A stretch of 34,894 bases of DNA from Nitrospirota bacterium (GTDB lineage: Bacteria; JACPQY01). A program made the translations under genes and the position numbers. The notes beneath the pieces were generated by a model. That model was given only the letters and a program-made list of their open reading frames with translations. It made no database searches and had not been told where the DNA came from. Below, one piece after another: positions 5,040 to 20,600 of the stretch (positions are counted from its first letter, which is position 1; the number at the start of each line of letters is the position of its first letter). Location: the NCBI GenBank assembly GCA_016180645.1, contig JACPAV010000035.1, positions 1-34,894 of the forward strand, in the 5' to 3' direction.

Positions 5040-6149
5040 ATGAGGTCTCTCAACCGAATTCTACTCGCCACTGATTTCAGTGATGGCGCGGGCGGCGCTC
5101 TAAAACAGGCCATTGTTCTCGGCCGCGCGTTCGGGGCGGAGGTCCATCTCATGCACGCCCTCCACCACAGTGTTCCCGAACTGGAGCGTGCCGGTCAGAA
5201 GGCGGTGCTCCAGATGCTCTGGGGGATGCAAACGGAGATCGAAAAAGCGGGAGTGAAGGCGGCCAAGGAACCGCTCGTCATGTTCGGGCGCCCGTCCGAT
5301 TGCATCCTGAATACCGCCGATGAACGGACGGCCGGCCTGATTCTGATCGGCGCGCGCCAGCGGAAAGAGTTGGGACGATTTCCCCTGGGAACGACCGCCG
5401 AGAAAGTCATCCGGAGATCGCTGAAGCCCGTCTGGGTGGTGCGACCGGATGGAAGAGAGCGTCCGGAGAAGATTCTGTGTGCCGTGGATTTTTCGGATCC
5501 CTCCAGGAATGCGTTGGTCCACGCGATCCAGCTCTGCCGCGTCATGGGTGCGAGTCTGATCCTGTTGAACGTTTTGAGCGCCGAAGCTCCGTATCCCCGG
5601 ATACCGGATCTGGGTCTCGTTCCCCTCCCGCCGGGAGACACGGCGGACGACCGCGGAAAGCGGCTGGCGGAGTTTCTGTCACCCCTTGGGCCGGCGGGTC
5701 TACACGTGGAGTTGAAAGTGGTCTTGGGAACCCCCCACGAAGCCATCCTGCACGCCGCGGAGGAATCCAAATGCGACTTGCTGGTGTTGGGATGCGTGGG
5801 ACGCTCCGGACTGAGCCGGATCTTGATGGGCAATACGGCGGAGAAGGTTGTTCGGGAAGTGCCGTGTTCGCTCCTGACCGTTCGCGAGGCGGATGGTGCG
5901 CCGATCGGCCTCGAGGGAGAGCTTGTGGATGCGGAGACGCATTTCCGGCGCGGGCGGGATCTGGCCGAGAAAGGTTTTTTCGAGGAGGCCCTTCGCCAGC
6001 TCGGCCTCTGCCTTGCCGTGGACCCCTATTTCTCCTCCGCGTACGACGTGCAGGCGGATGTCCACCAGAAGTTGGGCCACGGGCCTATCGCCCGTGTTCT
6101 TCGCGAGCAGGCCCGAATCAGCCGGGAGAACAGGGGAGCGAAAGTCTAG
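5040..6149 (+). CDS. Tandem universal stress protein (two Usp domains) with a C-terminal TPR-like extension
   Basis: RILLATDFS...LGTTAEKVIR and KILCAVDFS...MGNTAEKVVREVPCSLL; tail HFRRGRDLAEKGFFEEAL...DPYFSSAY is TPR-like. Confidence 0.9.
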   Translation: MRSLNRILLATDFSDGAGGALKQAIVLGRAFGAEVHLMHALHHSVPELERAGQKAVLQMLWGMQTEIEKAGVKAAKEPLVMFGRPSDCILNTADERTAGLILIGARQRKELGRFPLGTTAEKVIRRSLKPVWVVRPDGRERPEKILCAVDFSDPSRNALVHAIQLCRVMGASLILLNVLSAEAPYPRIPDLGLVPLPPGDTADDRGKRLAEFLSPLGPAGLHVELKVVLGTPHEAILHAAEESKCDLLVLGCVGRSGLSRILMGNTAEKVVREVPCSLLTVREADGAPIGLEGELVDAETHFRRGRDLAEKGFFEEALRQLGLCLAVDPYFSSAYDVQADVHQKLGHGPIARVLREQARISRENRGAKV

Positions 6150-6252
6150 CCCCTCCCTTCCGCCACTCCCCCCGCATTCCGCGCCCCGTGTCGACTTGGG
6201 CCCGGGGTCATGGTATCGGGGGAATTCCGATGGACATGCATCCGGCCAGGAC

Positions 6253-7527
6253 ATGATCAGGCTGTGGAGTGGCGCGACTCGCGGCCCGGCGGGGTCCACC
6301 GTCTCCGGTGCCTCCCCGGCCCGAAGAGCTCTCCTCCGCGGAGGATTCGGCCTGATTCTTCTGGCCGGATGCGATCTCCTGGCTTGGCTTCTCCTCGCGG
6401 TGTCGGCGAGATTCGGCGTGGTCTATCGGCCCATCTCCGATTTCCGGCTTCTCGAAGAGGATCGACGGGCCGTCGTTCGGCTTCTCGCGGATGGGACCAC
6501 CTATCTTGTCCACAGCCCGAGCCTGGGATGGAGCATCCGCCCGCAGGCCGCGACGCCGGACGGAATGTATCGGGCGAACTCGCAGGGGATACGGGCGGGC
6601 CGGGAGTACACGGCCCGCCCACCCCACGGCCTCACCCGAATCTCGGCCTACGGAGATTCGTTTGTCCACGGGGATGAAGTCGGCTTCGACGATACGTGGG
6701 AGGCCGAGTTGATGCGTCTCGATCCGCGCCTGGAGGCGTTGAACTTCGGCGTGATGGGATTCGGATCGGACCAGGCCTTCCTTCGGTATCGGGAAGAACG
6801 AACGAGGTTTCAATCGCAAGTGGTCCTGATCGGCTACATGTCCGAGAACATCCAGCGGACCGTAAACGTGTTCCGGGCGTTCTACACGCCGGGATACGGA
6901 ATGCCTTTCACCAAGCCCCGATTTGTCCTTGACCCGTCCGGACTGAAGCTGCTCGAAAACCCATTGCCCACGCGGGCCGACTACCGGGCCATGCTGGAAA
7001 GCCCGGGCCCCACATTGCGGCGGCTTTCGAAGGATGACGGTTGGTTCAAGTGGATGCCCCATGAGGGGAAATGGGATGGGCTTGCGGTCGTTCGATTGGG
7101 CAAGACGGCTCTGTTCTGGTATCGGCGAGTTCTGGCGCCGGACGCGATTCTGACCCCGGAAGGCGTGTACCGTCGAGGATCGGATGCGTTTGAGTTGACC
7201 CGGGCCATTCTCTCCGCCTTCTACGCCGAGGTGGAGATCCACGGAGAGTTTCCCGTCATCGTCCTCTTCCCCAGTCCCGCGGATGTTCGTCGATATCGGA
7301 AAACCGGAAAAGCCCGCTACGCTCCCCTGGCGGACGATCTACAAAAGATGAAACGGCGAGTCATTGACACATTGCCGGCGTTGGCGGGCCTGACCCCGGA
7401 TCCCCTGACCCCGGATCCAGGGGGAGGCGCGGTCAACGTGCACTATTCGGCCGCTCAGAACAAGGCGGTCGCCCGCAAGATCCTGGAGGAGATGTCTCAC
7501 TCATGGCCGGACGCTCTGAAGCCCTGA
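6253..7527 (+). CDS. Membrane-anchored SGNH/GDSL hydrolase-like protein
   Basis: N-terminal TM segment; AYGDSFVHG, NFGVMGFGSDQA and C-terminal VHYS; start chosen at ATG 6253 because the longer ORF overlaps the USP gene. Confidence 0.75.
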   Translation: MIRLWSGATRGPAGSTVSGASPARRALLRGGFGLILLAGCDLLAWLLLAVSARFGVVYRPISDFRLLEEDRRAVVRLLADGTTYLVHSPSLGWSIRPQAATPDGMYRANSQGIRAGREYTARPPHGLTRISAYGDSFVHGDEVGFDDTWEAELMRLDPRLEALNFGVMGFGSDQAFLRYREERTRFQSQVVLIGYMSENIQRTVNVFRAFYTPGYGMPFTKPRFVLDPSGLKLLENPLPTRADYRAMLESPGPTLRRLSKDDGWFKWMPHEGKWDGLAVVRLGKTALFWYRRVLAPDAILTPEGVYRRGSDAFELTRAILSAFYAEVEIHGEFPVIVLFPSPADVRRYRKTGKARYAPLADDLQKMKRRVIDTLPALAGLTPDPLTPDPGGGAVNVHYSAAQNKAVARKILEEMSHSWPDALKP

Positions 7528-8579
7528 AGCCGGCGCTTCTCTCCCTTCTCGTTCGGGGCGCTTACCTCGCCGTCGCCTGGGCTCTGAGTCCGGATTTCTC
7601 GGCCGTGGGCCGGTACGATGACTCCTCCAGCTATCTCGTGCTGGCCAACGCTTTCCAGACGGGTGAGTGGGCCGATCTGACCCTCCAGGCTCGCAAGTTC
7701 TGGCCCGGCTACCCGATGGCGGTGGCCATGTTTTCCGGCCTGCTGCACCTGTCGACGCCGACGGCTGCGATCGGGGTCTCGATCCTCGCTGCATCCGGCT
7801 CCACGTACCTGGTGGCGAGGCTGCACGGGGCCCGCGTGGCGGTTCTTTTCGCGTGCCTGCCGCCGGACTGGGTTTTTTACGGGAGTCTCATTTTCAGCGA
7901 AGCGCTGGCCACCCTGCTGATTTGGCTGTCCATCTTCCTTCTGTCAAGAACCCGGCGATACGACCTCGGGATCGGCGTGGCGTCTTTGGCCGCCCTCGCC
8001 CGGCCGCAGGGTGTATTCCTGCTTGCGGCGCTGGGGATTCAGGGCATCAGGGAGCGCCGGACGCGATCGGTCGTGATGGGAGGAGTCTTCGCCGCTGCCG
8101 TCGCGGCCTCGTGGTTCCTCTACCTCTACCTCAAGACCGGGGAACCGTTCTCGTCGCTGACCGGCTACGGCGCCGTTGGCCAGTGGCGGGGATTTCCCAT
8201 GACGATCCCGTTCGCGTCGGTGGCGCATGAATTGTTCGCGAACCGAGTCGCCTGGGTGCGAAAGGTCTACCTGGTTGGGCTTTGGGCGGTCACGCTCTGG
8301 GCCGCAGTCGTCGGAGTTCGGCGTATGAGGTCGGCCACCGAGCCTGTGGTTCAGGTGGAGTCGATCTTTCTCCTGGTCTTTGCCGCGTACTTTGCGTGTG
8401 AGAACAGTGCGTGGGGGTTTACCGCCTTTTCCCGGTTCGTCATACCGGTGTCCCCCGTCGTTCTAGCCGCCTTCGGGGAACGACTTCCACCGGGGAAATG
8501 GGCCTATGGGGTGGCGTGCTCCATCTCATTCGCGCTTGCGGTGGCGATATTCCTGAGGAGCCCCGCCGGCCCGCTCTGA
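7503..8579 (+). CDS. Polytopic membrane protein, GT-C (PMT/mannosyltransferase-like) glycosyltransferase candidate
   Basis: About 10 hydrophobic segments; YDDSSSY in the first loop, WPGYP, IFSEAL, LARPQG, RFVIP. Confidence 0.65.
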   Translation: MAGRSEALKPALLSLLVRGAYLAVAWALSPDFSAVGRYDDSSSYLVLANAFQTGEWADLTLQARKFWPGYPMAVAMFSGLLHLSTPTAAIGVSILAASGSTYLVARLHGARVAVLFACLPPDWVFYGSLIFSEALATLLIWLSIFLLSRTRRYDLGIGVASLAALARPQGVFLLAALGIQGIRERRTRSVVMGGVFAAAVAASWFLYLYLKTGEPFSSLTGYGAVGQWRGFPMTIPFASVAHELFANRVAWVRKVYLVGLWAVTLWAAVVGVRRMRSATEPVVQVESIFLLVFAAYFACENSAWGFTAFSRFVIPVSPVVLAAFGERLPPGKWAYGVACSISFALAVAIFLRSPAGPL

Positions 8580-8638
8580 GTTTTCAGAAGGAGGAATTTC
8601 CGTGAAGGGGGTGTCCCGTTCTGCTAGGATGGGCGCCA

Positions 8639-11600
8639 ATGGTCAGCCGACCACGAGCCGGGGGAGTTCTTGCCAGCCGTGCGCTCATCGCCGCATTTTG
8701 GGTTCCGGCCCTTCTCATCGTCTTCACGAATCCCTCATGGTCGCAGACCGAAGAATACCAACGGCGTGTTCCCGGCCCCATACAACGCCCGGCTGAAGAT
8801 ACGAAAGCGCTCATCCAGCTCATGAATCCCTACGATCCGTTGAAGCGGATCCAGGCTGCCGAGAGACTCGGCCGGACCGGGAACCCCATCTACGCCGAAC
8901 CGCTGGGATGGGCGATGGTCGATCGAAATCTGGCGGTGCGAAAGTCGGCCGCCCGCGCGCTCGGCCATTTGCCGGAAGGAGACGCCCTCCCGGTGCTGGT
9001 CCGCGCCCTCTCGAAGGAGAAGGATGACGGCGTGCTGGAATCGGTGTTGGACGCAATGGCCGGGTTCCAGGGTTCCATGGTCGATTGGCAGCTCAAGCAT
9101 TTCATCTCAAGCGCACTGGCCTCGGAACGGGTGCGCCTCAAGGCATTGGACATTTTCGGCACGCGCGCGCCACCCGATGGTCGGGTTTTTCTTGACCTGA
9201 ATCGCGGCTCGTTCCCGCCTGCGATGAGGACCAAGGCGGAGGAAATCATGGCCGAGAGCTACGGGGTCAAACCTCAGGTGCAGGTCTTTCCTCCGGTCTT
9301 CGTCGGTCCCCAAAAGCCCGAACCGGCCCCCGTGCCGGCGCCGACGCCGGTCCCCGCGGTCGAGGAGCCTCCCCCCGATCCCCGCGCGCGCGGTCGATGG
9401 CTTCTGGTAACCAGTTCCGGACTCTATGGTGCATCGTTCCTGGATCTCATGCGACGGGCGTCCGATTCCCAGGTTTCACCGAGCTGGACGATGCCCATCG
9501 GCCTGACCGTGGGCGGCGGCACGGCCTACCTCATGACCCATTTCTCGCACGGTGTGAGCCCCGGCCCCGCCCTTTGGTGGACCTCCTCGGGCATCTGGGG
9601 CGTGGCGGCGTCTCACTGGACCGCCAACGGGATGGGTGAGGGTCACGGTTCCACGAGGCGGCTTTACAACCTGGCGGGCGAGGGGATCGGCCTGGGCGCC
9701 GGGGGGATCTCGGCCTTCGCTCTGGATTGGACGATCAGTGACACCACGTACGTCAACACAGGAGGTGTGGGTGGTGCCCTTTGGGGTTGGGGGCTCGAGC
9801 TGATGAGCGGGCCGGAACGCGATCCGGCCAAGGCGGGCTGGCTCACCCTGGCGGGGGCCACGGGCGGATTGACCCTCGCGGCGCTCTCGACAGAACGGGT
9901 GACCCTCCGGAATTCCAACCTTTCGATGCTGTTCCTGGCCTCCGGCTACGGCGCGTGGGCGGGCGCATGGGCGCCGGGGCTGGGACGACGGTCCATTCCC
10001 GGCCACAAGGCGTGGGGGGGGAGCTTGACGGGACTGACCACTGGATACGCCGCCGGCGTGTTTCTCTCGCAGCGAGTGACCGAGCCGCCCGAATTCGCGT
10101 GGCGCGTGGTGGGCGCGGGCGCGATGGGGAATCTTCTTGGCGCGGGCCTCGGTTTCATGTTCTTCGACACGTTCGACCAACCTTCGATCGCACTAATGGA
10201 GGGGTTGGGTATCGGCGGTCTCGCGACGGGCGTGTACTACGATCACCTTTTCCCAGCCTCGCGGGAGCAGCCGGGCTTCAAGTCATTCGTCTTTCTTTCA
10301 GGGGCCTACTACGGTGCTCTGGTTCCGCGCGCGCTCAACCGGACTCCGCATGGGCGGCGGAGGACGGGACGGATCATGGCAGGATTTCCGATGCTGACCG
10401 CGGCCACGTTGGCATTTGGCAATGGCCTTGAAATCCCTCCGCGCGGAACCGCGGGGCTCTACTGGGGCGAGATTCTAGGGAGTGTGTCGGGCGCGGGCTG
10501 GGCCCTGACCTCCCGCTCCGACCAAGCTCTGCTTTCGGCCCTCGCGATGGGCGGGGGCGTTCTCGGCGCGGCTGGGGGATACGGTATGAGCCAGAGTCTG
10601 TCGTGGGCCCCGATGACGGAGCGTGAACATTCATTCGTCATGCTCCTGACGGCCTCGGGCGCATGGTACGGGGCGTGGGCGCCGGTGATGCTGCCGGGCC
10701 GTGTGGATCTGGACCGTGTGGGTGGCGGCGCGCTCGCGCTCTCCCCTCTGGCTCTCGGTACATCGCTTGTGCTGGCCGATCAGATCGAGCTGCGGCCTCG
10801 CATCAATCACGGGCTTTTCTTCGGGGAGGCCGTCGGATTTCTGGCGGGAGCCGGGGCCGGGTGGTCGCTGCTGGCCGATAGGCGGACGACCACGGCCATG
10901 ATGCTCGCCGGAGGCGCAGGCGGGATGTTCGGCGGCTACGTGTTCGTGCGGAACATGGCGGCGGCGTCTCCGGTCCGCGCGTGGCGGGAAAGCATCCTCG
11001 TGGCTCACGGCACGCTGGCGGGCGCGTGGTACGGCGGGTGGACGGCGAGGTCGTTCCGATTGTCCGGCCGCCGCATTTCGGCCCGACGGGTTTCGGGCGG
11101 CGCACTCCTGGGGGGAACCGTCGGCCTCACGGGTACGATGTGGATCACCAATCACTACGACGTGCAGAATCGAGTCCTGCCGGGGCTGTTCTATGGTCAG
11201 GTGATGGGCGGTACGTTCGGGCAAGGCGTCGGGTTCCTCATGACGCGATCGACGGGGCGCAATCCATCGGACGAAACGCTGGGGAAGATCGACCGCGAAG
11301 TGGATCGTTCCTACTACATCATGGCGGCTTCGAGCGCCGCGGGGATGACCGGAGGGTATTTCTTCGCGACCCGGATGGCCGATCCCTCCTCTTGGAGAGG
11401 GAAGGAGACGTCGTGGTTCTTTCTCCACTCGTCGTTTGCGGCATGGTACGGGGCATGGCTTCCCACCATGGGCCGTTCGCGCGTGGCGGACGTGGAGCAG
11501 CGCCACGTCTTCGGGGGTGTGATGACGGCCGTGCCGACCGCGATGGCCGCCTCGATCTGGAGTGCAAACCATATGGATCTGTCGCCGAGGACCGTGCCGT

Positions 11601-13927
11601 CGCTCCTGCTGGGAGGAATCTTGGGCACTTCAACCGGCATCGGAGTCGCGGAAACCACGCTGGGTTCGGGCCGGTTCAGACGAGCGTCCATGCTGACGGG
11701 TGGCGCGGCAGGTGAACTCTTCGGCTACGCCTACGGCCGCGCGTTGAGAGCGGGATCGCCGAACACGACGCCAATGGCGGCGGCCGTCACGAGTCTGGGC
11801 ACGTTCTCCGGCCTTTGGTACGGCGCGTGGCTGCCGACGCTCGTTGCGCGGGATCTTTCGGATGTGTCCGATCGGCGCATCGCGGGCGGGGTGATGGTGG
11901 GCGGGCCGGCAGCCTTCGCGGTTTCGTTGTGGACAGCCAATCAAGTCGGCATCAGCCCGCGGTCGGCCACGGGATTTTTTCTCGGCGAGGGGTTGGGCAC
12001 GTCGTTTGGCGCGGGCCTCGGGTTGCTGATCCATTCGGACGATCGCTGGAGAAGCACATTCATGCTCTCTTCGGGGGCACTGGGCGCATGGAGCGGCTTG
12101 GAAATGGCGCGCCGGATGATCGGGCCGTCCGCTTTCCGGGATGACGAGGGGGCGGTGGCCGTGGCGCTCTCGACGGCGTCGTTCACGTGGTATGGAACGT
12201 GGCTGCCGACGCTTGCCGTGCGCGATTTGAAGAAGGGTTCGCCTTCGGGGGTCATCGGCGGGGCCATGATGGCGGCGCCGGTCGGATTCGCGGCGTCCAC
12301 ATGGATCGTGAATCACCACGTCGTTCGGGAGCGGGACCTGAAAGGAATCTTCGGCGGCGAGGTGATGGGATTCTCCGTCGGCGCCGGGATCGGGATGGCC
12401 GGTTTGAGCTCGCGTAGATGGACCACCTCGCTCATGCTCGGGACCGGTGCGGTGGGCGCCCTCGCGGGCTACCGGGTCGCTCAACGTCTGCCCGGTCAGG
12501 CGCTGGAGGACTATCCGCCGCTTCTGGCATTCACCGCTCTCACCGGGCTGTGGTACGGAGGGTGGTCGCCCACGTTCACGGCGCGGAGGTGGTCCGACAT
12601 CGAGTCCAGGCGCGTGACCGGCGGCCTCATGATCGGCGGTCCGTTGGGCCTGGCGACGGGTCTCATTCTCCGCCATCGCCAAGTGGAGCCGTTGGCCTAC
12701 ACGGGATTCTTCATGGGGGAAAGTCTCGGTTCCATGGGGGGGGCGGGGGCCGCGATGACGCTGGATTCGTCCCACAGGAAGACCACGGCCGCGATGCTCG
12801 CCTCGGGCGTCGCCCTGGGGGCCGCGGGGTCGAGGGTGCTGCCGCGGATGAAACTCTCCGATCCGCAGCAGAAGGCGTTGGGGATGGGCGCGTTCTTCGG
12901 CGTGAGCTACGGAGCGCTCCTGCCGTATGTGGTGGAAGGCCGCAGGCGCGAAGTTGAAGGCAAACAGATTGCCGGCGGCGTGATGTTCGGTCTGCCGGCG
13001 GGTCTGGTGACCACGACGGCCGCTTTCGCTTTCTGGGACCCCGCAGGGGGTTCGGTGGGCCTCACCTGGTTGTCCGGCATCATCGGCTCGGCTGCCGGGC
13101 TGGGCCTCGGTCTGACGATCGAAGATTGGAACTCGCGGGCCGTCATCGGTTCGATGTATTCCACCGGCCTCAGCGGACTGGCGTTGGGCGCGCGCGCGCC
13201 GCAAATCAAGTACACCTCGGGAGCGCTTCTCTTCTCCACCTTCGGCACCGTCTACGGGTTCAGCCAGGGGTTGGCGCTGAGTATTTTCGGCGATTTTTCC
13301 GAGCGGCAGGCGATCGGGGCGATGATGTTGGGTTCGTCTCTCGGCCTCGGCACGTCGTTGATCATCACCTACGATCTTCAAGTGGGGACGGGCGGGGCGG
13401 CCGTGGCGTACACGGGCGGGATCTGGGGCGGATTCGTTGGGGCGATGCTCGCGCAGGTGGCGGCGGGCGGCAAAGAGGAGACGACGACGGCCGCCGTCAT
13501 CGTGAGCAATGCAGGGCAACTGGCGACCACGTTTTCCCTCTTGTATCTCCGTATTCCGCCGAGACGCATGGGTTGGATCAACTTGTTTGGTCTGACCGGC
13601 TTGGGGATCGGGAGCGCCATCGGACTTCCGCTCAGCGAGGGAGGCGATGTGTTCTTCATCACCGCGCCGGCGGGGAGTTTGATCGGGCTGACGACGGGGG
13701 CGATCGTCACATCCTACTGGGACTGGGAAGAGGAGCGGAAAGATTCGGGGCAGACGCCTTCAATCGGTGGCGCGTCGCCGCTCCGCGAGACATCGCCCGG
13801 ACACGGTTGGCGTTCGCTCGTTCCGCGCGTGGATGCCGTGGCGCCGCAATTCGGACTCCTTCCCGATCCGAGCGGCCGGGACCCCGAAGGGCGATATACG
13901 GTTGGCGTCATGATCTGGTATCACTAG
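8639..13927 (+). CDS. Giant exported protein: HEAT repeats, Pro-rich linker, ~120-aa Gly-rich hydrophobic tandem repeats, C-terminal beta-strand-like tail
   Basis: 1762-aa ORF; signal-like N-terminus; HEAT motifs RIQAAERLG and VRKSAARALG; nine WYGxWxP-type motifs spaced about 350-420 nt apart. Confidence 0.85.
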   Translation: MVSRPRAGGVLASRALIAAFWVPALLIVFTNPSWSQTEEYQRRVPGPIQRPAEDTKALIQLMNPYDPLKRIQAAERLGRTGNPIYAEPLGWAMVDRNLAVRKSAARALGHLPEGDALPVLVRALSKEKDDGVLESVLDAMAGFQGSMVDWQLKHFISSALASERVRLKALDIFGTRAPPDGRVFLDLNRGSFPPAMRTKAEEIMAESYGVKPQVQVFPPVFVGPQKPEPAPVPAPTPVPAVEEPPPDPRARGRWLLVTSSGLYGASFLDLMRRASDSQVSPSWTMPIGLTVGGGTAYLMTHFSHGVSPGPALWWTSSGIWGVAASHWTANGMGEGHGSTRRLYNLAGEGIGLGAGGISAFALDWTISDTTYVNTGGVGGALWGWGLELMSGPERDPAKAGWLTLAGATGGLTLAALSTERVTLRNSNLSMLFLASGYGAWAGAWAPGLGRRSIPGHKAWGGSLTGLTTGYAAGVFLSQRVTEPPEFAWRVVGAGAMGNLLGAGLGFMFFDTFDQPSIALMEGLGIGGLATGVYYDHLFPASREQPGFKSFVFLSGAYYGALVPRALNRTPHGRRRTGRIMAGFPMLTAATLAFGNGLEIPPRGTAGLYWGEILGSVSGAGWALTSRSDQALLSALAMGGGVLGAAGGYGMSQSLSWAPMTEREHSFVMLLTASGAWYGAWAPVMLPGRVDLDRVGGGALALSPLALGTSLVLADQIELRPRINHGLFFGEAVGFLAGAGAGWSLLADRRTTTAMMLAGGAGGMFGGYVFVRNMAAASPVRAWRESILVAHGTLAGAWYGGWTARSFRLSGRRISARRVSGGALLGGTVGLTGTMWITNHYDVQNRVLPGLFYGQVMGGTFGQGVGFLMTRSTGRNPSDETLGKIDREVDRSYYIMAASSAAGMTGGYFFATRMADPSSWRGKETSWFFLHSSFAAWYGAWLPTMGRSRVADVEQRHVFGGVMTAVPTAMAASIWSANHMDLSPRTVPSLLLGGILGTSTGIGVAETTLGSGRFRRASMLTGGAAGELFGYAYGRALRAGSPNTTPMAAAVTSLGTFSGLWYGAWLPTLVARDLSDVSDRRIAGGVMVGGPAAFAVSLWTANQVGISPRSATGFFLGEGLGTSFGAGLGLLIHSDDRWRSTFMLSSGALGAWSGLEMARRMIGPSAFRDDEGAVAVALSTASFTWYGTWLPTLAVRDLKKGSPSGVIGGAMMAAPVGFAASTWIVNHHVVRERDLKGIFGGEVMGFSVGAGIGMAGLSSRRWTTSLMLGTGAVGALAGYRVAQRLPGQALEDYPPLLAFTALTGLWYGGWSPTFTARRWSDIESRRVTGGLMIGGPLGLATGLILRHRQVEPLAYTGFFMGESLGSMGGAGAAMTLDSSHRKTTAAMLASGVALGAAGSRVLPRMKLSDPQQKALGMGAFFGVSYGALLPYVVEGRRREVEGKQIAGGVMFGLPAGLVTTTAAFAFWDPAGGSVGLTWLSGIIGSAAGLGLGLTIEDWNSRAVIGSMYSTGLSGLALGARAPQIKYTSGALLFSTFGTVYGFSQGLALSIFGDFSERQAIGAMMLGSSLGLGTSLIITYDLQVGTGGAAVAYTGGIWGGFVGAMLAQVAAGGKEETTTAAVIVSNAGQLATTFSLLYLRIPPRRMGWINLFGLTGLGIGSAIGLPLSEGGDVFFITAPAGSLIGLTTGAIVTSYWDWEEERKDSGQTPSIGGASPLRETSPGHGWRSLVPRVDAVAPQFGLLPDPSGRDPEGRYTVGVMIWYH

Positions 13928-13934
13928 ATCGCAT

Positions 13935-14507
13935 ATGGAATTCCGTATCCAACTTCCTGCGATGCTGGCCGGACTCCTGACGCTGATCGCCTCCGCCCTC
14001 CCGGCCCAAGCCGAAGGACCCCGAATCACCATCGAGTTCCGGGACAATCGCGGGGATTTTGCTTACGACGTGTACAAGGACGGAGAGTGGCAGGAGATGG
14101 ACTACTACGGGCGGCAGCTTGAGAGGCTCGTCAAAGAGGACGAACAAGCGAGGAGGTTCGCGAGGGACCTGGCGGACGATCGGGAGGAGGGGAGGCAGGG
14201 CAGGATCTTTGGGCATGTACTCCTGTGGGGCTCGGTGCTGGGGACGATTGTGGCGGCGAGCTCCGAATCGACGGGCGGCACATTGCTGGGCGTGGCTGGG
14301 ATGGTCGGCGGGATCGTAGTTGCATCCAACGGAAAATCGAAAGGCCGGAAGGCCTACCGGTACCTTTTCCGGGCCGTGAACACGTACAATGAATCCATGG
14401 CCGTTCGGGGTGCTGTGCCTTCGGGTCCGGCCGTTGGCCAGCCCGGTACTCCGGATTGCTCTTGCGGCGAAGGAACTTTTCCACCCGGCGGCGCAGGGAA
14501 TCCATAG
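13935..14507 (+). CDS. Hypothetical exported protein with a Gly-rich hydrophobic hairpin
   Basis: 190 aa, starts 7 nt after the giant gene; signal peptide ending LPAQA; LLWGSVLGTIVA...GTLLGVAGMVGGIVVA. Confidence 0.7.
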   Translation: MEFRIQLPAMLAGLLTLIASALPAQAEGPRITIEFRDNRGDFAYDVYKDGEWQEMDYYGRQLERLVKEDEQARRFARDLADDREEGRQGRIFGHVLLWGSVLGTIVAASSESTGGTLLGVAGMVGGIVVASNGKSKGRKAYRYLFRAVNTYNESMAVRGAVPSGPAVGQPGTPDCSCGEGTFPPGGAGNP

Positions 14508-14692: not shown

Positions 14693-15457
14693 CTAAGCCG
14701 GAATCCGCCAGACGGTGGCCTGGAGGACGACGGTCATCACGAGGGAAACGACGTACGCCATGTACAGGTTGGCCACCACATTTTGCGTCACGGCCCGTCG
14801 CACGCCATCAGGACCCGGCGACGCGGAGAGGGCCTTGAAGCACGAGACGATGATTTCGAGAAAACACATCAGCGTTCCAAACAGGATGGAGAAGATAATA
14901 TCCTGGCTGGAAATCACGTTCAGAATCCACTGATTGACGACCCACGTTCCGAGGCCCGCGGCGAGGGTGGCGAGAACGGCCGCGAGGTAGCCCGCCGCCA
15001 TCGTGACGGCGGTGAAGAGTGGACCGAGGAGAACGGCGGCCAACACGCGGGGCGCGGCGAGTTCGTGCAGCGGGTCCACCCCCATCACCGTGAGGGCGTC
15101 CACTTCCTCGTTGATTTTCTGCGTGGCGATCTCCGCGGTATTGAGCGTGGTCCATGTTGCGTTGAAGAGCAGGCCCACCATGAACGGTCCCTGAAATCTG
15201 AAAACGAGGATCGCGATCAGCAGGCCGAAATACGGCTGGGCGCCGAGTCGCGCGAAGAAGGTGTAGCCACCCAGGACGAGCACGAACGTGACGATGAACG
15301 TGAGGAGAATGAGGATGGGGAGGACCCGGACGAGCATCCGGGTAATGGCGCGGGCGGTCGGGCGGATCAGATCCGCCGGATGGTGCACGGCGGCGGCGCA
15401 GGCATCGGCGGCAAAGAAGACCCCCGCGCCGATATTCTCGATTGAGGCCCTAACCAT
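14693..15457 (-). CDS. mlaE: MlaE/YrbE-family ABC permease (second paralog)
   Basis: AEIATQKINEEVDALTVMGVDP...PRVLA and GPDGVRRAVTQNVV; overlaps the first paralog by 8 nt. Confidence 0.88.
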   Translation of the reverse strand: MVRASIENIGAGVFFAADACAAAVHHPADLIRPTARAITRMLVRVLPILILLTFIVTFVLVLGGYTFFARLGAQPYFGLLIAILVFRFQGPFMVGLLFNATWTTLNTAEIATQKINEEVDALTVMGVDPLHELAAPRVLAAVLLGPLFTAVTMAAGYLAAVLATLAAGLGTWVVNQWILNVISSQDIIFSILFGTLMCFLEIIVSCFKALSASPGPDGVRRAVTQNVVANLYMAYVVSLVMTVVLQATVWRIPA

Positions 15458-16256
15458 AAACGAAGAGATCGAACAGGAACAGAATGATCAGGCCGATGAG
15501 GTAACTGTAGTTGATGCTCTTGTTGGACGCCTCGCCGACGCCCTCCGCGCCGGGCTTGCTCGTGAAGCCGCAGTAGACCGTGGCCACCCCGAGAGCAAAG
15601 CCGATGATCATGGCCTTGATGCCCACGAGGTAGAAATCGCCGGGCTTGATCATGAGCGTCAGGCCGTCCATAAAATCTCCCGCCGTGGTCAGTCCCTTCA
15701 CGGTGACGGTGAGAAACAGTCCGAGTCCGATCACGATGGCCACGCCGATGTACGTGTAGAGGACGCTCATGACGAAGAAGGCGACGAAGCACGGCACGCC
15801 CAGATACTTCACGGGGTGGATGCCCATGACTTCGAGGGCATCGACCTCCTCGCTCGCGCGCATCGTGCCGATCTGGGCGGCAATGGCGCATCCGGCGCGT
15901 CCCGCAAGAATGCTGCCCGTGAGCACGATGGATCCGTCCCCCATCAGAATGGAGAGCGTCAATCCGCCCACGTATTTCGCGATGCCGAGGGCCTGCGCTC
16001 CGGCGATGCCGATGATGATCATCGAGACACCGAACCCGCTGGCCATGAGGATCAAGGGCCACAGCCCCATCACCCCGATGTAGTGCATCTGCCGGATGGT
16101 TTCTCGGACGTAGAACGGCGGCGTGAAAACGTGCTTGAGAAGCGTTCCGGAGTAAAGGGCGATCCGCCCGATCTCCTCTGGGAAGTGGACAAGGGATCGA
16201 GGGGTCGAGCGAAGGGCAGAGAAATCTGACGGCTCTGCGATACTCTTTCCGTTCAC
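15450..16256 (-). CDS. mlaE: MlaE/YrbE-family ABC permease (first paralog)
   Basis: AGRAGCAIAAQIGTMRASEEVDALEVMGIHPVKYL and GAEGVGEASNKS. Confidence 0.9.
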   Translation of the reverse strand: MNGKSIAEPSDFSALRSTPRSLVHFPEEIGRIALYSGTLLKHVFTPPFYVRETIRQMHYIGVMGLWPLILMASGFGVSMIIIGIAGAQALGIAKYVGGLTLSILMGDGSIVLTGSILAGRAGCAIAAQIGTMRASEEVDALEVMGIHPVKYLGVPCFVAFFVMSVLYTYIGVAIVIGLGLFLTVTVKGLTTAGDFMDGLTLMIKPGDFYLVGIKAMIIGFALGVATVYCGFTSKPGAEGVGEASNKSINYSYLIGLIILFLFDLFVYG

Positions 16257-16291
16257 CTGATTACTTGATCACATGGCCACATGACCCCATC

Positions 16292-17170
16292 CTACAGGAG
16301 CCACGACTTGCTCAACTTCGTCAGCACTTTCTCGAGTTGATCCAGAAGCGCTTTGACGCGCTTTTCCGTTTCCGGATCGTTCACCTTGGTGAGAATCTGG
16401 TTGAGCTTGGTCGTGATGTCCTTGCCGTTGCGGATGATGGTCTGAAGGTTCTCCTTCTCGGAGTCGGTGAGCCGTCGGATCTCCGCGGCGGTGTGCGAGA
16501 CGTCGTCGAGCGCGGGCTTGGCCTTGTCGGTCAGCTCCTGAAGGTTCCTGACCGTCGTACTGATCTCTCTTTCATGCGTTTGAAAAAACGTTTTCACATT
16601 GCGAATGAGGACGGCCGAGTCCTGAATGGCGGTGGCCACGTTCGCTTGGGATCCGCCCTTCTCCGCGCCGCCGGAAATGACCTCGTTGATCTTGGAGAGG
16701 CTTTTCGCAAAATCATTCATCGCCGGTGAGAACTTGGCGAACATCTGTCCGGCCTGGTTGAGGAGCTCGGAGACATCGGTGCTCGGGAGGACGTTGGATA
16801 TCTCACCGCCGTCCTCAATGAGCGGCGCCTCCGGGCTGCCGGGTGTCAGCTCCACGACCTTTTCGCCGAGGAGGCTCTTGGGACGGATCGTGGCGGTGGC
16901 ATCGGCGTGCAATTGGACATCCTGGTTGATCGACATGGCCATCCTCGCGCCGCCCTCGATGTAGCGGATGCTCTCGACGCGACCGATGGGCACGCCGGCG
17001 ATCTGCACGCTCCCGAGAGCTACGACGCCCTGCGCGTGGGGAAACGTGGCGCTGACGGTGTAGCGGCTGCCGAACTTGAACGTGCCGAACTTGATGCCGA
17101 TGAAGATGATCACCACGATGGAGGCCAGGACGAACAGACCCACCTTGAGTTCCGCGGAGAACTTTTTCAC
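16292..17170 (-). CDS. mlaD: MlaD/MCE-domain protein with a long helical C-terminal extension
   Basis: ELKVGLFV TM anchor; VQIAGVPIGRV; SLLGEKVVELTPG; coiled-coil-like tail. Confidence 0.92.
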   Translation of the reverse strand: MKKFSAELKVGLFVLASIVVIIFIGIKFGTFKFGSRYTVSATFPHAQGVVALGSVQIAGVPIGRVESIRYIEGGARMAMSINQDVQLHADATATIRPKSLLGEKVVELTPGSPEAPLIEDGGEISNVLPSTDVSELLNQAGQMFAKFSPAMNDFAKSLSKINEVISGGAEKGGSQANVATAIQDSAVLIRNVKTFFQTHEREISTTVRNLQELTDKAKPALDDVSHTAAEIRRLTDSEKENLQTIIRNGKDITTKLNQILTKVNDPETEKRVKALLDQLEKVLTKLSKSWLL

Positions 17171-18305: not shown

Positions 18306-19211
18306 TCACCCCTCGACGGGCAATGAAAAGCGCCCTTCGAGGAGGGTCCTGAGAGGATACGGAGGGGAAGGGGGGAGGCCGTGGGCGGACACGTGTATCC
18401 CGCCGCGCTTCCAGGCGCGTTTCCGTCCCGGCTTGCCGCGGTGGGTCCGGCGGAGGAAATCGCGAAGCTGCCGCGCCTCGGCGATGTTCTGGAGTCCCGC
18501 CGGGTCCGCCTTCCACTGGGGAGCGGATTCTCCATCTCGAAGAAACTGCCGGGCGTTGCCGAGGGCCAGCTTCAGGAAGGCGTCGATTTCGGCATGGGAG
18601 AGATAAACGTTCTGCTTCAGCCGGCGATTGCGGAACTGGTCCAGAAACATCACGCCCGAGAAAAGGAGGCGATTGGTCTGGAAGTTGAGGAGGGTGGGCG
18701 TGAGTTGCGCCTGGAGAAGATCGTTGTTGCGCCGGGCGGCTTCGCGGAAGATCTGACGAAACGACACGTGAAGCTCCTGGAGAACGTGGCGTTCCACGCA
18801 GAATTCCCAATAGGTGTGTTTGAACGCGCGCTTGTAGAAGAAATTGATGAGCTGGAAGGGAACGAAAATGTTGTGCGATACAATGTCGGCCGCGAGGTGC
18901 GTAAAGTAACCGTAGGTGAACGCGCGGTGGTGATCGTTTTGGGAACGGTCCAGAAGCTCCCGGGCTACGCTCCAGTTGTGGCAGTGATACCGGTATTCAG
19001 CGAGGTTCTTTCCAAAAAGAATATCCGCCCCGATGCACCCATACAGGTAGTCGGACCGGTACGCGGAGATGAGGGAGGCCGTCTCCGAGGCGATCTGGGG
19101 GAGCGAAGACAGGACGTGCTGGCCGATCCAGAGATGGGTGGAGGGGCCCCAGGCCAGGCACTCGGGAGGGAAAAGTAGGCTGATTCCCAGAATACAGAGA
19201 ACAACAATCAT
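18306..19211 (-). CDS. Zinc-dependent phospholipase C / P1 nuclease-superfamily protein
   Basis: Signal peptide followed by WGPSTH (mature Trp1); GCIGADI; HCH; GYFTHLAADIVSHN; HTYWE. Confidence 0.85.
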   Translation of the reverse strand: MIVVLCILGISLLFPPECLAWGPSTHLWIGQHVLSSLPQIASETASLISAYRSDYLYGCIGADILFGKNLAEYRYHCHNWSVARELLDRSQNDHHRAFTYGYFTHLAADIVSHNIFVPFQLINFFYKRAFKHTYWEFCVERHVLQELHVSFRQIFREAARRNNDLLQAQLTPTLLNFQTNRLLFSGVMFLDQFRNRRLKQNVYLSHAEIDAFLKLALGNARQFLRDGESAPQWKADPAGLQNIAEARQLRDFLRRTHRGKPGRKRAWKRGGIHVSAHGLPPSPPYPLRTLLEGRFSLPVEG

Positions 19212-19243
19212 GGAGTATTACTACCGCAGTTGGTCGGTTCCGG

Positions 19244-19362
19244 GTAGTCGCAGCCCCTTGCCCAAGACGGCATGGGGCCATGATAGGTTGTGGCCCAGGA
19301 TGGGCCACATGGAACATGGCCTTCAGGCTGCGCACCGAACGCGGGCTGAAGCCCGCGGCTAC
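19244..19362. repeat. GTAG-type REP doublet with a ~60-bp insertion in the first hairpin loop
   Basis: GTAGTCGCAGCC...[insert]...CTTCAGGCTGCG followed by CGCGGGCTGAAGCCCGCGGCTAC. Confidence 0.65.
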
Positions 19363-19394
19363 AAGGACAGAACAGGATGTTGCGGCGCTCAGCC

Positions 19395-20600
19395 TTACGA
19401 CGCCGGGAGATTGACGAGCCGCCGCGCCATCACGATGCGCTGGACCTGGCCGGTCCCTTCAAAGATGTCGAACACCTTCATGTCGCGGAACAGCTTCTCG
19501 ACGAAATAATCGTTCCGAACGCCCGCGTCGCCCAGTACTTCCATCGCCTCGCGGGTGACCTCCAGCGCGGCCGGGGGGCAGTAGGCCTTCGCCATGGACG
19601 CTTCGAGCGTGTTCGGCTTGCCGTGGTCCATGAGCCACACGGCCTTCCAGCAAAGAAGACGCCCGGTATCGAGCTTGCGGCGCATGTGGTTGAGCTTCTC
19701 CTTCAGCTTTTGGTAGCGGGGAATGGGGCGGTTGACCATGTAGTTCTCTTTCACGAAATCGCGGACGTACTCGTACGCTGCGCGCCCGATGCCGATGGCC
19801 ATGGCGGCGACAGCGGGACGCGTCATGTCGAACGTGCCCATCGCGCCCTTGAAGCCTTCTTTCGCCTGGTAGTGCTCTTCGCCGCCGAGCAGATTCTCTT
19901 CCGGAACCTTGCACTCTTCATAGATGAGGGAAGCCGTTTCAGATCCGCGCAGCCCCATCTTCTGTTCGATGCGGCCCACGCGATATCCCGGCGTGCCCTT
20001 TTCGACGACGAACGTGCGATGGCCCTTTCGTCCGAGGCTCTTGTCGATCGTGGCGAACGTTACCGCCCAATCGGCCCTCGCGGCGTTGGTGATAAACATC
20101 TTCTCGCCGTTCAGGATGTAGAACTTGCCTTCCTTGCGGCAGGTCATCTTGATGCTGGAGACGTCCGACCCTGCGCTCGGTTCGGTGAGCGCAAAGCAGC
20201 CCCAGCGGGGCATGGTCTTGTCCTCGAAAATTCCGAAAAATCTCTTCTTCTGGTCCTCCGTGCCCATGATCTGAATCGGGGGGCTTCCCAAGCCGGGTCC
20301 GGGCAGCGACATCGCCACGCCTTGGTCCCAGTAAGCGATTTCCTCCGCCGCCATGATGCCGATGCGGCCCATCTTTTTCGGGCCGCCGCCGTTCTTCTTC
20401 TTGCCGCCCTGCTCTTCGAGCGCCCGCATGCCGAACGACACGCCGAAGCTCATGAACTCCTTGAAGAAAGGATGATCGACCGGCAGGGCTTCGTGTTTCC
20501 TGTCGCATTCGATCCCGAGGGGACGGAATTTCTCCTTCCCCATCCACTTCAGCATGTTGAGAATGTTCTCGGCGCCGGGGTCCAGGCTTAGGTCGATCAT
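19395..20600 (-). CDS. Acyl-CoA dehydrogenase (catalytic-type subunit)
   Basis: FALTEPSAGSD; LNGEKMFITN; KMGLRGSET; DIFEGTGQVQR with the catalytic Glu. Confidence 0.95.
   Translation of the reverse strand: MIDLSLDPGAENILNMLKWMGKEKFRPLGIECDRKHEALPVDHPFFKEFMSFGVSFGMRALEEQGGKKKNGGGPKKMGRIGIMAAEEIAYWDQGVAMSLPGPGLGSPPIQIMGTEDQKKRFFGIFEDKTMPRWGCFALTEPSAGSDVSSIKMTCRKEGKFYILNGEKMFITNAARADWAVTFATIDKSLGRKGHRTFVVEKGTPGYRVGRIEQKMGLRGSETASLIYEECKVPEENLLGGEEHYQAKEGFKGAMGTFDMTRPAVAAMAIGIGRAAYEYVRDFVKENYMVNRPIPRYQKLKEKLNHMRRKLDTGRLLCWKAVWLMDHGKPNTLEASMAKAYCPPAALEVTREAMEVLGDAGVRNDYFVEKLFRDMKVFDIFEGTGQVQRIVMARRLVNLPAS

Follow-up and report, generated by a model that had tools for sequence, protein, structure and literature searches.

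A giant HEAT-domain protein with tandem glycine-zipper units and 48 predicted membrane-length helices in a Nitrospirota bacterium

The giant gene and its surroundings

We analysed a stretch of 34,894 nucleotides (nt) from a Nitrospirota bacterium (assembly GCA_016180645.1, contig JACPAV010000035.1, positions 1 to 34,894 of the forward strand), which is called the window below. It contains a gene for a protein of 1762 amino acids (aa; protein P0001) that joins a HEAT-repeat domain to a very long, glycine-rich region of predicted helices. The gene is one uninterrupted frame of 1762 codons plus stop, starting with ATG. No in-frame start was found 5' of this ATG, and an AGGA lies 9 nt 5' of it. 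An artefactual open reading frame (ORF) of DNA rich in guanine and cytosine (GC) was considered and is ruled out by the homologues of the protein and by its HEAT domain. The host genome assembly comprises 4.7 Mb in 65 contigs and is 97% complete. Table 1 lists the features of the gene, its neighbours and its paralogue.

Table 1. Positions of the features of the giant gene, of neighbouring genes in the window and of the paralogue
Feature	Position (nt)	Strand	Basis or remark
Whole gene	8639..13927	+	Intact frame; full-length or nearly full-length homologues, 43-49% identical; paralogue in the host genome
Signal-peptide-like N-terminus, aa 1-35	8639..8743	+	Basic n-region, hydrophobic core and SWS/QT in the sequence
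HEAT-repeat domain, aa 41-151 by matches	8759..9091	+	Pfam HEAT_2 and HEAT_PBS; alphaRep/HEAT chains of the PDB
Proline-rich linker, aa 223-248	9305..9382	+	Sequence; P224 and P248 invariant among 4 close homologues
Six divergent N-terminal glycine-rich helices, aa 248-417	9380..9940	+	AlphaFold2 model of aa 241-660; strong conservation among close homologues
Ten tandem four-helix units of ~120 aa, aa 435-1654 (helices 7-46)	9941..13600	+	Repeat hidden Markov model (HMM), unit alignment, shuffles, predicted helices, 374-unit family profile
Most conserved C-terminal core, putatively in the membrane, aa 1472-1692 (helices 41-48)	13052..13714	+	Invariant columns; kept in short family members
C-terminal tail, aa 1693-1762	13715..13924	+	Disordered stretch, then predicted beta-hairpin ending RYTVGVMIWYH
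544-aa ORF with weak SGNH/GDSL-like match; 358-aa polytopic ORF	5893-8579	+	Upstream; overlap by 25 nt
190-aa ORF	13935-14507	+	Starts 8 nt after the stop codon of the giant gene
Two MlaE-family permease genes and an MlaD-domain gene (lipid-transport type)	14693-17170 and 18306-19211	-	Just downstream
Paralogue (G000:C39, locus L015)	8211-14117	-	Contig end; neighbours differ from those in the window

N-terminal arm

The beginning of the protein looks like a Sec signal peptide, judging from its sequence. An Arg-containing n-region is followed by the hydrophobic core VLASRALIAAFWVPALLIV and then by SWS/QT. By a crude hydropathy criterion, a hydrophobic stretch stands at the start of 28 of the 40 long homologues, and several of the others are visibly truncated. 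A lipoprotein was considered as well and is ruled out by the lack of a lipobox Cys after the signal region, which ends ...FTNPSWSQTEE (no Cys occurs in aa 1-40).

The part that follows matched two Pfam families above their cut-offs, HEAT_2 (PF13646; aa 56-140, E 4.6e-11, 43.3 bits versus a cut-off of 27.7) and HEAT_PBS (PF03130; 23.5 bits versus 20.9). All 20 matches among PDB sequences at E<=1 were alphaRep/HEAT chains and fell within aa 41-151, the best alphaRep reaching E 1.7e-21. The HEAT domain probably continues to about aa 215. It is separated from the helical region by the proline-rich sequence GPQKPEPAPVPAPTPVPAVEEPPPDP at about aa 223-248. The original prediction for this gene, which had been made by eye from the letters of the window, had named all three elements (a signal-like start, HEAT-like repeats and a proline-rich linker), and each of them was found.

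Tandem repeats of the helical region

The same prediction had described a unit of about 120 aa, marked by the motif W/Y-Y-G-x-W/L-x-P at nine named positions and alternating with a glycine motif. A variant of the first motif is present at all nine positions, the strict form at six, and a GExxGxxxGxG-like motif was found nine times. We could confirm the repeat with an HMM built from a single unit (aa 1041-1164). Besides this seed, it detected seven units at E 1e-8 to 2.8e-26 and one more at 5.5e-4. Three iterations delimited ten clear units (aa 435-1630, E 1.9e-26 to 2.1e-42). The seed HMM reached at most 6.0 bits on 200 composition-preserving shuffles of the rest of the region, versus 21.5-78.2 bits for the seven units.

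The first helix of the unit (H1) carries the sequence WYGAWxP, and GxxxG zippers occur in all four helices. Between aa 248 and 1692 we counted 87 GxxxG motifs, compared with 41.6 +/- 5.3 in 1000 shuffles (maximum 60), and 39 GxxxGxxxG motifs, compared with 7.0 +/- 2.8 (maximum 20). The repeat region consists of 16.9% Gly, 12.3% Ala and 11.1% Leu. The divergent helices that precede the units gave weak matches to the repeat HMM at aa 321-383 and 404-437 only; dense invariant columns at aa 259-446 were seen in the alignment of close homologues.

Predicted structure

Two overlapping AlphaFold2 models cover the helical region. The model of aa 241-660, based on an alignment of 32 rows, has a predicted local distance difference test score (pLDDT) of 88.8 and a predicted template modelling score (pTM) of 0.79, and contains 14 helices. 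The model of aa 563-1762, based on 36 rows, has a pLDDT of 77.4 and a pTM of 0.53 and contains 37 long helices. Three helices are common to both models, so that 48 helices are predicted for the whole chain, in line with the 45-50 segments that had been counted by eye. They are arranged as six divergent helices (aa 248-417), ten four-helix units (helices 7-46) and a terminal hairpin (aa 1641-1692).

The predicted helices have a mean length of 24.3 residues and are joined by loops of mostly 3-9 residues, with charges, Pro and aromatic residues at the helix ends. In a profile of 374 units from 40 long homologues, charged residues (Asp, Glu, Lys and Arg) make up 2.4% of the helix cores and 31.5% of the loops, and in each of the four helices Gly is the dominant residue at positions with i, i+4 spacing. 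In the window protein, 33 of the 48 helices carry no charge in their best 19-residue stretch. Charge-free helix cores together with charged loops argue for a membrane-embedded region and are hard to reconcile with a soluble solenoid.

Three weak matches of the structure aligner VIA aligned the first and last helices of the long model jointly to one compact bundle. This hints that the chain ends may touch in that model, although its pTM of 0.53 carries no weight for such a contact.

C-terminal core and tail

The terminal hairpin, which belongs to the most conserved part of the helical region, carries the motif PxRxxxINLxGLxG, and the loop between helices 47 and 48 consists of the four residues SEGG. 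The invariant columns of this core were seen both in an alignment of the window protein with the myxobacterial proteins and in that of the close homologues. The constant part of the family comprises the last ~eight helices with this motif, plus the C-terminal strand.

The tail contains two predicted strands (aa 1731-1741 and 1752-1761), which have a pLDDT of about 50 in the long model. Of the 40 long homologues, 30 carry a strand-like motif at the C-terminus and 4 more a clade variant. The motif shows alternating hydrophobic residues and in most homologues ends with an aromatic and then a polar residue (e.g. GTWH, GFWK, GIFR). By its sequence, the tail is thus a conserved hallmark of the family.

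The tail had been compared to an outer-membrane protein signal. The beta-signal of outer-membrane beta-barrels places an aromatic residue at the very C-terminus. The chain here ends in His, only one low-confidence hairpin is predicted, and the weak Lys/Arg excess described below fits the cytoplasmic membrane. This reading of the tail is not supported. An outer-membrane beta-barrel as such is ruled out, as there is no C-terminal aromatic residue and no barrel domain in the AlphaFold2 models, which are all helical apart from the two tail strands. When the HEAT arm (aa 36-240) and the tail (aa 1693-1762) were modelled together as a complex, the score was 0.01, from which no verdict was drawn.

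Searches against known families and folds

NCBIfam and PHROGs gave no match for the giant protein. In Pfam, the repeat region had no significant match, neither with the whole protein at E<=0.01 nor, at E<=10, with four segments taken from the helical region. The best of the Gly-zipper families was PF13441 (Gly-zipper_YMGG) at E 3.5, with 7.8 bits versus a cut-off of 28.9. A search of PDB sequences with the repeat-unit profile returned a transmembrane helix of WzzE as the best match, at a non-significant E of 0.26.

The predicted folds were compared with known structures by two programs. Foldseek found no PDB match at E<=0.001 for either model. The best entries for the long model were alpha-solenoids (Nup188, importin-9, Kap121) at E 0.13 or worse and template modelling scores (TM-scores) of 0.12-0.17, and those for the short model were MFS transporters at E 0.05 or worse, with a TM-score of about 0.2 and a root-mean-square deviation (rmsd) above 20 A. 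When VIA-align was run on 48,161 representative chains, Z stayed below 8 for both models; such values correspond to the noise level stated by the tool and are ordinary for helical proteins. Its best alignments cover one hairpin only (50-64 residues). Among them were Tim22 (7cgp_A; top entry for the short model, Z 7.0, rmsd 3.4, 61 residues, 15% identity), decameric TraT (9e2v_A; Z 6.6, 56 residues, 20% identity), SlyB (7ojf_A; Z 5.6 over 55 residues and Z 6.4 over 56), a chain of the TIM23 complex (Z 6.2) and small subunits of respiratory complexes and photosystems. When VIA was run on the top 1000 of Foldseek, Z was at most 5.9, to sub-bundles of MurJ, MATE or ABC transporters; these alignments mostly covered some four helices at a time (model residues 1-123, 124-238 and 304-420). 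Such values mean that no known fold was found, and they do not indicate kinship.

A known transporter of the MFS, MOP/MurJ/MATE or ABC type seems unlikely, since Pfam and NCBIfam gave no match, the Foldseek matches are weak and those of VIA are confined to four-helix pieces. The earlier statement that the protein fits no transporter family is supported by sequence and by predicted fold. There is also no full-length match to a characterised family, and the model shows a repeating fold with charge-free cores. The overall picture, in which a soluble HEAT adaptor is joined to a very large membrane domain of repeated helices, is supported. None of the results points to the pore, lipid conduit or surface scaffold that the original prediction had suggested as examples.

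The ESM Atlas offered leads only: Myxococcota clusters without a name reached 0.91, and those with a name reached 0.79 or lower, with Gly-zipper_YMGG on about one fifth of the members of the named clusters. In a literature search that covered few subscription journals, we found no description of a protein combining a HEAT domain with tandem glycine-zipper membrane repeats. The helical region matches none of the libraries searched, and as far as we searched the family is not in print.

Family and distribution

A word-indexed search retrieved 15 proteins of 1634-2266 residues (the window protein included), 14 of which have a precomputed HEAT family. Three of the 15 are homologues at 43-49% identity over 74-100% of the query. 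An exhaustive search with aa 1054-1516 gave 51 representatives at E<=0.001, 15 of them at E<=1e-10 and two at E<=1e-30 (one being the protein itself). The long homologues contain 4 to 14 units according to the repeat HMM. The host genome encodes a second full-length copy of 1968 aa with 13 units, which is about 49-54% identical to the first and 99.95% identical to the database protein P0002. We propose that giant envelope proteins of this kind form an undescribed family, of which the window protein is a founding member.

The phylum group of the host consists of two genomes in our collection, and both contain the family. The member in the sister genome (L018 1339-3390, minus strand) is 683 residues long. 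It has a signal peptide and a HEAT domain, a smaller number of helices and a tail of the same type. The more distant members come from metagenome-assembled genomes whose titles read Myxococcales, Deltaproteobacteria or delta proteobacterium. A profile of the last 700 residues gave matches at E<=1e-10 in 32 of the 401 genomes that were sampled from the phylum with the myxobacterial named records (one of the 32, G236, being unpublished); the family frames span 260 to 2334 residues. One of the genomes searched, which includes a contig of more than 5.4 Mb, carries two copies. Overall, the family is rare. A short family form found elsewhere has 282 residues. A search for shorter relatives of aa 1400-1762 gave one fragment only (P0016). 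Scans with the alignment of close homologues yielded 89 pattern matches in genome contigs and 164 in metagenome contigs, none of which was confirmed.

DNA of the host is present in groundwater metagenomes of one study (four DNA runs, three of which are possible sources). The sequencing-run search listed no RNA runs holding host sequence.

On another contig of the host genome (G000:C47, locus L026, 1444-2149, plus strand) we noticed what looks like the C-terminal remnant of a short member, split into overlapping frames of 109 and 156 codons. It resembles the intact gene for 683 residues in the sister genome and directly adjoins an ORF of 343 codons on the opposite strand. This remnant is probably a pseudogene.

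Gene neighbourhood

The 544-aa and 358-aa ORFs upstream may be co-transcribed with the giant gene. The 358-aa ORF has a weak match to a family of cell-surface glycopolymer formation (32 bits versus a cut-off of 150). The 190-aa ORF has a signal-peptide-like start and a glycine-rich, hydrophobic stretch that resembles a hairpin (GHVLLWGSVLGTIVAAS...GGTLLGVAGMVGGIVVAS); neither Pfam nor NCBIfam gave a match for it, and the sister genome has no relative. The downstream MlaE/MlaD genes are followed by a gene resembling zinc-dependent phospholipase C. This membrane-lipid gene arrangement was not seen at the other family loci. Likewise, the window neighbours (544 aa, 358 aa, 190 aa and a Usp gene) have no counterpart beside the paralogue, in the sister genome or at four myxobacterial loci. 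The paralogue is accompanied by genes for a Kelch-repeat protein, a phage-integrase-family protein and an AAA_22/PG_binding protein. The sole neighbour common to three myxobacterial loci is an M20 peptidase; at one locus (L028), an AsmA-family gene (18387-20219, plus strand) lies ~1.7 kb downstream of the family member, after the M20 peptidase gene. As the neighbours are not conserved, the context offers no clue to the function, and the gene behaves as an independent unit.

A promoter scan found no promoter-like site, and terminator-like sites occurred at the level of shuffles (8 observed, 8.2 in shuffles). At window 8588-8796 (plus strand), a strong Shine-Dalgarno-like sequence (AAGGAGGA) lies 5 nt 5' of a GTG at 8602. 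This GTG starts a frame of 64 codons, which runs into the beginning of the giant gene in a different frame; it may be due to chance in GC-rich DNA or represent a small leader ORF. Inside the giant gene there is also an antisense frame of 629 codons (11630-13519, minus strand), plus several of 100-300 codons. Such frames are usual for coding DNA of 66% GC and are not genes; the same effect misled naive ORF picking in the myxobacterial loci.

Topology and proposed architecture

The host genome encodes proteins of the Omp85/BamA type (best E 3.1e-59), which makes the cell a diderm with a periplasm. In the loops after helices 12-47 of the window protein, Lys and Arg number 29 on the HEAT-arm side of the array and 44 on the opposite side. 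Averaged over the family, each loop has 1.50 and 0.86 of these residues on the opposite side versus 0.83 and 1.05 on the HEAT side. The direction of this asymmetry fits the positive-inside rule for a protein of the cytoplasmic membrane with an exported N-terminal domain. Given an even number of helices and an exported arm, the tail would come to lie on the same side as the arm.

We therefore favour, at about even chances, a giant helical array in the cytoplasmic membrane whose arm and tail reside in the periplasm. The Sec-type signal peptide would send the HEAT arm into the periplasm, and the proline-rich spacer would link it to the 48 membrane-length helices, which in all likelihood would traverse the cytoplasmic membrane in alternating directions. 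The GxxxG(xxxG) face on each helix would permit close helix-helix packing and therefore a long series of four-helix blocks in the bilayer rather than a compact transporter bundle. The protein might then serve as a structural or mechanical membrane platform with a very large in-plane footprint, tied by the HEAT arm to a periplasmic partner. The conserved last helices would be a likely site of self-association or conduction.

Several observations weigh against this architecture. The original prediction had spoken of dozens of hydrophobic segments. The predicted helices are indeed uncharged and of membrane length, but their hydrophobicity is weak: only 4 of the 48 reach a Kyte-Doolittle mean of 1.6 over 19 residues. 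On an additive biological-hydrophobicity scale (after Hessa et al. 2005), none of the 48 best windows is <=0, and their mean is +5.4. Such weakly hydrophobic helices might pass through Sec without a membrane stop, and standard transmembrane predictors would probably miss many of them. The positive-inside bias is also weak (about 1.3-1.5 fold). The 282-aa relative, which belongs to another lineage, has no signal peptide, and if it shares the core, its orientation might differ. Furthermore, the alignments behind the two models are shallow, and helix packing, shape and parallel orientation can be judged only through the fold searches. Finally, no conserved gene neighbour and no named relative points to a function.

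Alternative explanations

The same architecture in the same membrane could also belong to an oligomeric gated channel or a mechanosensor. The units would form an arm in the bilayer like a Piezo blade, the conserved last two helices of several chains would line a pore, and the HEAT arm would tether this arm to the cell wall or the outer membrane. We consider this possible but rather unlikely. It would account for the tandem four-helix membrane units, whose number varies from 4 to 14, and for the C-terminal core as the most conserved part. Moreover, glycine zippers are said, in 2005 work by Kim et al., to be typical of homo-oligomeric channel helices. The organization also parallels that of Piezo, with nine four-helix units and two pore helices (PMC9256749). 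However, no Piezo chain is among the fold-search matches listed, there is no Pfam match, and the four-residue SEGG loop between the last two helices means that there is no cap domain. A more specific version, which we regard as a doubtful proposition, has a single chain crossing the membrane about 48 times. Its Piezo-like arm would be a tethered sensor or gate of envelope mechanics, with the HEAT arm pulling on, or being pulled by, the wall or the outer membrane, and the terminal hairpins of several chains would form a conducting or signalling core.

With a signal peptide and only marginally hydrophobic helices, the whole chain might instead be translocated by Sec and then build a single-chain palisade of glycine-zipper hairpins that is embedded in the outer membrane or lines it. 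This would be a covalent version of the SlyB and TraT rings that encloses or stabilizes a patch of membrane. The best structural matches are single glycine-zipper hairpins, those of SlyB and TraT included, and the C-terminal strand motif is conserved; SlyB and YfgH are described as glycine-zipper outer-membrane lipoproteins that act in envelope stress. Nevertheless, the Z-values are below the noise level of the tool and tie with those of mitochondrial Tim22 and complex I subunits. The protein has neither a lipobox Cys nor a Gly-zipper match in Pfam, and the Lys/Arg asymmetry, weak as it is, fits the inner membrane. We also know of no pathway that would carry about 1450 residues of apolar helices across the periplasm. 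Taken together, these points make a palisade improbable.

A soluble or peripheral periplasmic alpha-solenoid, in which Gly/Ala/Ser-rich helices pack in a HEAT-like manner, seems very unlikely. The alpha-solenoids at the top of the Foldseek results for the long model (E 0.13 or worse) and the low hydropathy would agree with it. Soluble solenoids, however, need polar outer faces, which are difficult to find when charged residues make up 2.4% of the helix cores. The helices have a uniform length of ~24 residues with charges, Pro and aromatic residues at their ends, and the top Foldseek entries for the better model (pTM 0.79) are all membrane transporters.

Least credible is the idea that the protein is secreted and acts on other cells as a membrane-inserting glycine-zipper toxin or bacteriocin. 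Glycine-zipper segments do occur in contact-dependent bacteriocins and type VII secretion system toxins according to two reports (PMC5380434, PMC12955049), but no secretion-system, immunity or toxin gene lies beside the window gene, the paralogue, the sister-genome gene or the members at four myxobacterial loci. No such toxin resembles the protein in size or in its 48 helices, and the gene is kept as a single chromosomal gene over two phyla.

Implications

If the favoured array in the cytoplasmic membrane is correct, the family represents a new design of membrane domain, a covalent run of glycine-zipper four-helix blocks rather than a bundle, and a new fold for structural biology. It would also be a hard test case for biogenesis, which would have to explain how 48 marginally hydrophobic helices behind a cleavable signal peptide are held and in which membrane. 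The distribution points to an envelope function common to myxobacteria and a small groundwater lineage, and the simple, regular repeat should be of interest to designers of membrane scaffolds.

Comparison with known systems

The polysaccharide exporters BcsC, PgaA and AlgK-AlgE consist of an exported periplasmic helical-repeat arm and a membrane-embedded C-terminal domain. That domain is an outer-membrane beta-barrel, and the genes lie in polysaccharide operons. The giant protein would resemble them in the order of signal peptide, periplasmic helical-repeat arm and C-terminal membrane domain, but its membrane domain is predicted to be all-helical and its gene neighbourhood is not conserved.

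The Tim17/Tim22/Tim23 proteins (7cgp_A, 8e1m_A) have about four glycine-rich membrane helices in a unit of similar size. Only one hairpin aligns, however, and there is no Pfam Tim17 match at E<=10. In addition, these proteins are mitochondrial protein translocases and are not tandemly repeated.

SlyB, YfgH and TraT (7ojf, 9e2v) are small outer-membrane lipoproteins with a glycine-zipper helical hairpin, which oligomerise into rings. Common features are glycine-zipper hairpins of low hydrophobicity, many of which would stand side by side in the membrane; the resemblance at the level of the hairpin (Z 5.6-6.6, 55-56 residues, 11-20% identity) is within the noise of the tool. In these lipoproteins, each chain has one hairpin, a lipobox and a periplasmic domain of another fold, whereas the giant protein would have 24 hairpins per chain, no lipobox and no Pfam Gly-zipper match.

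A further parallel is Piezo, whose blade contains nine transmembrane units of four helices each; with the two pore helices, a chain has 38 transmembrane helices, and Piezo is described as the record holder in this respect (PMC9256749). The differences are clear. There is no sequence match, and no Piezo chain is among the fold matches listed (long chains and repeats can be missed). The units of the giant protein are ~120 residues long, with loops of 3-9 residues and glycine zippers, and it has no cap domain between the last two helices; a beam or an anchor was not seen. It is also a bacterial protein with a putatively exported HEAT arm. On the other hand, both proteins carry tandem four-helix membrane units in one chain, in both the C-terminal membrane part is the most conserved, and both have a very high helix count (48 predicted here, 38 in Piezo). 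If the predicted helices do span the membrane, the family would hold the largest number of membrane-spanning helices known in one polypeptide, measured against the 38 per chain that the same source (PMC9256749) gives for Piezo.

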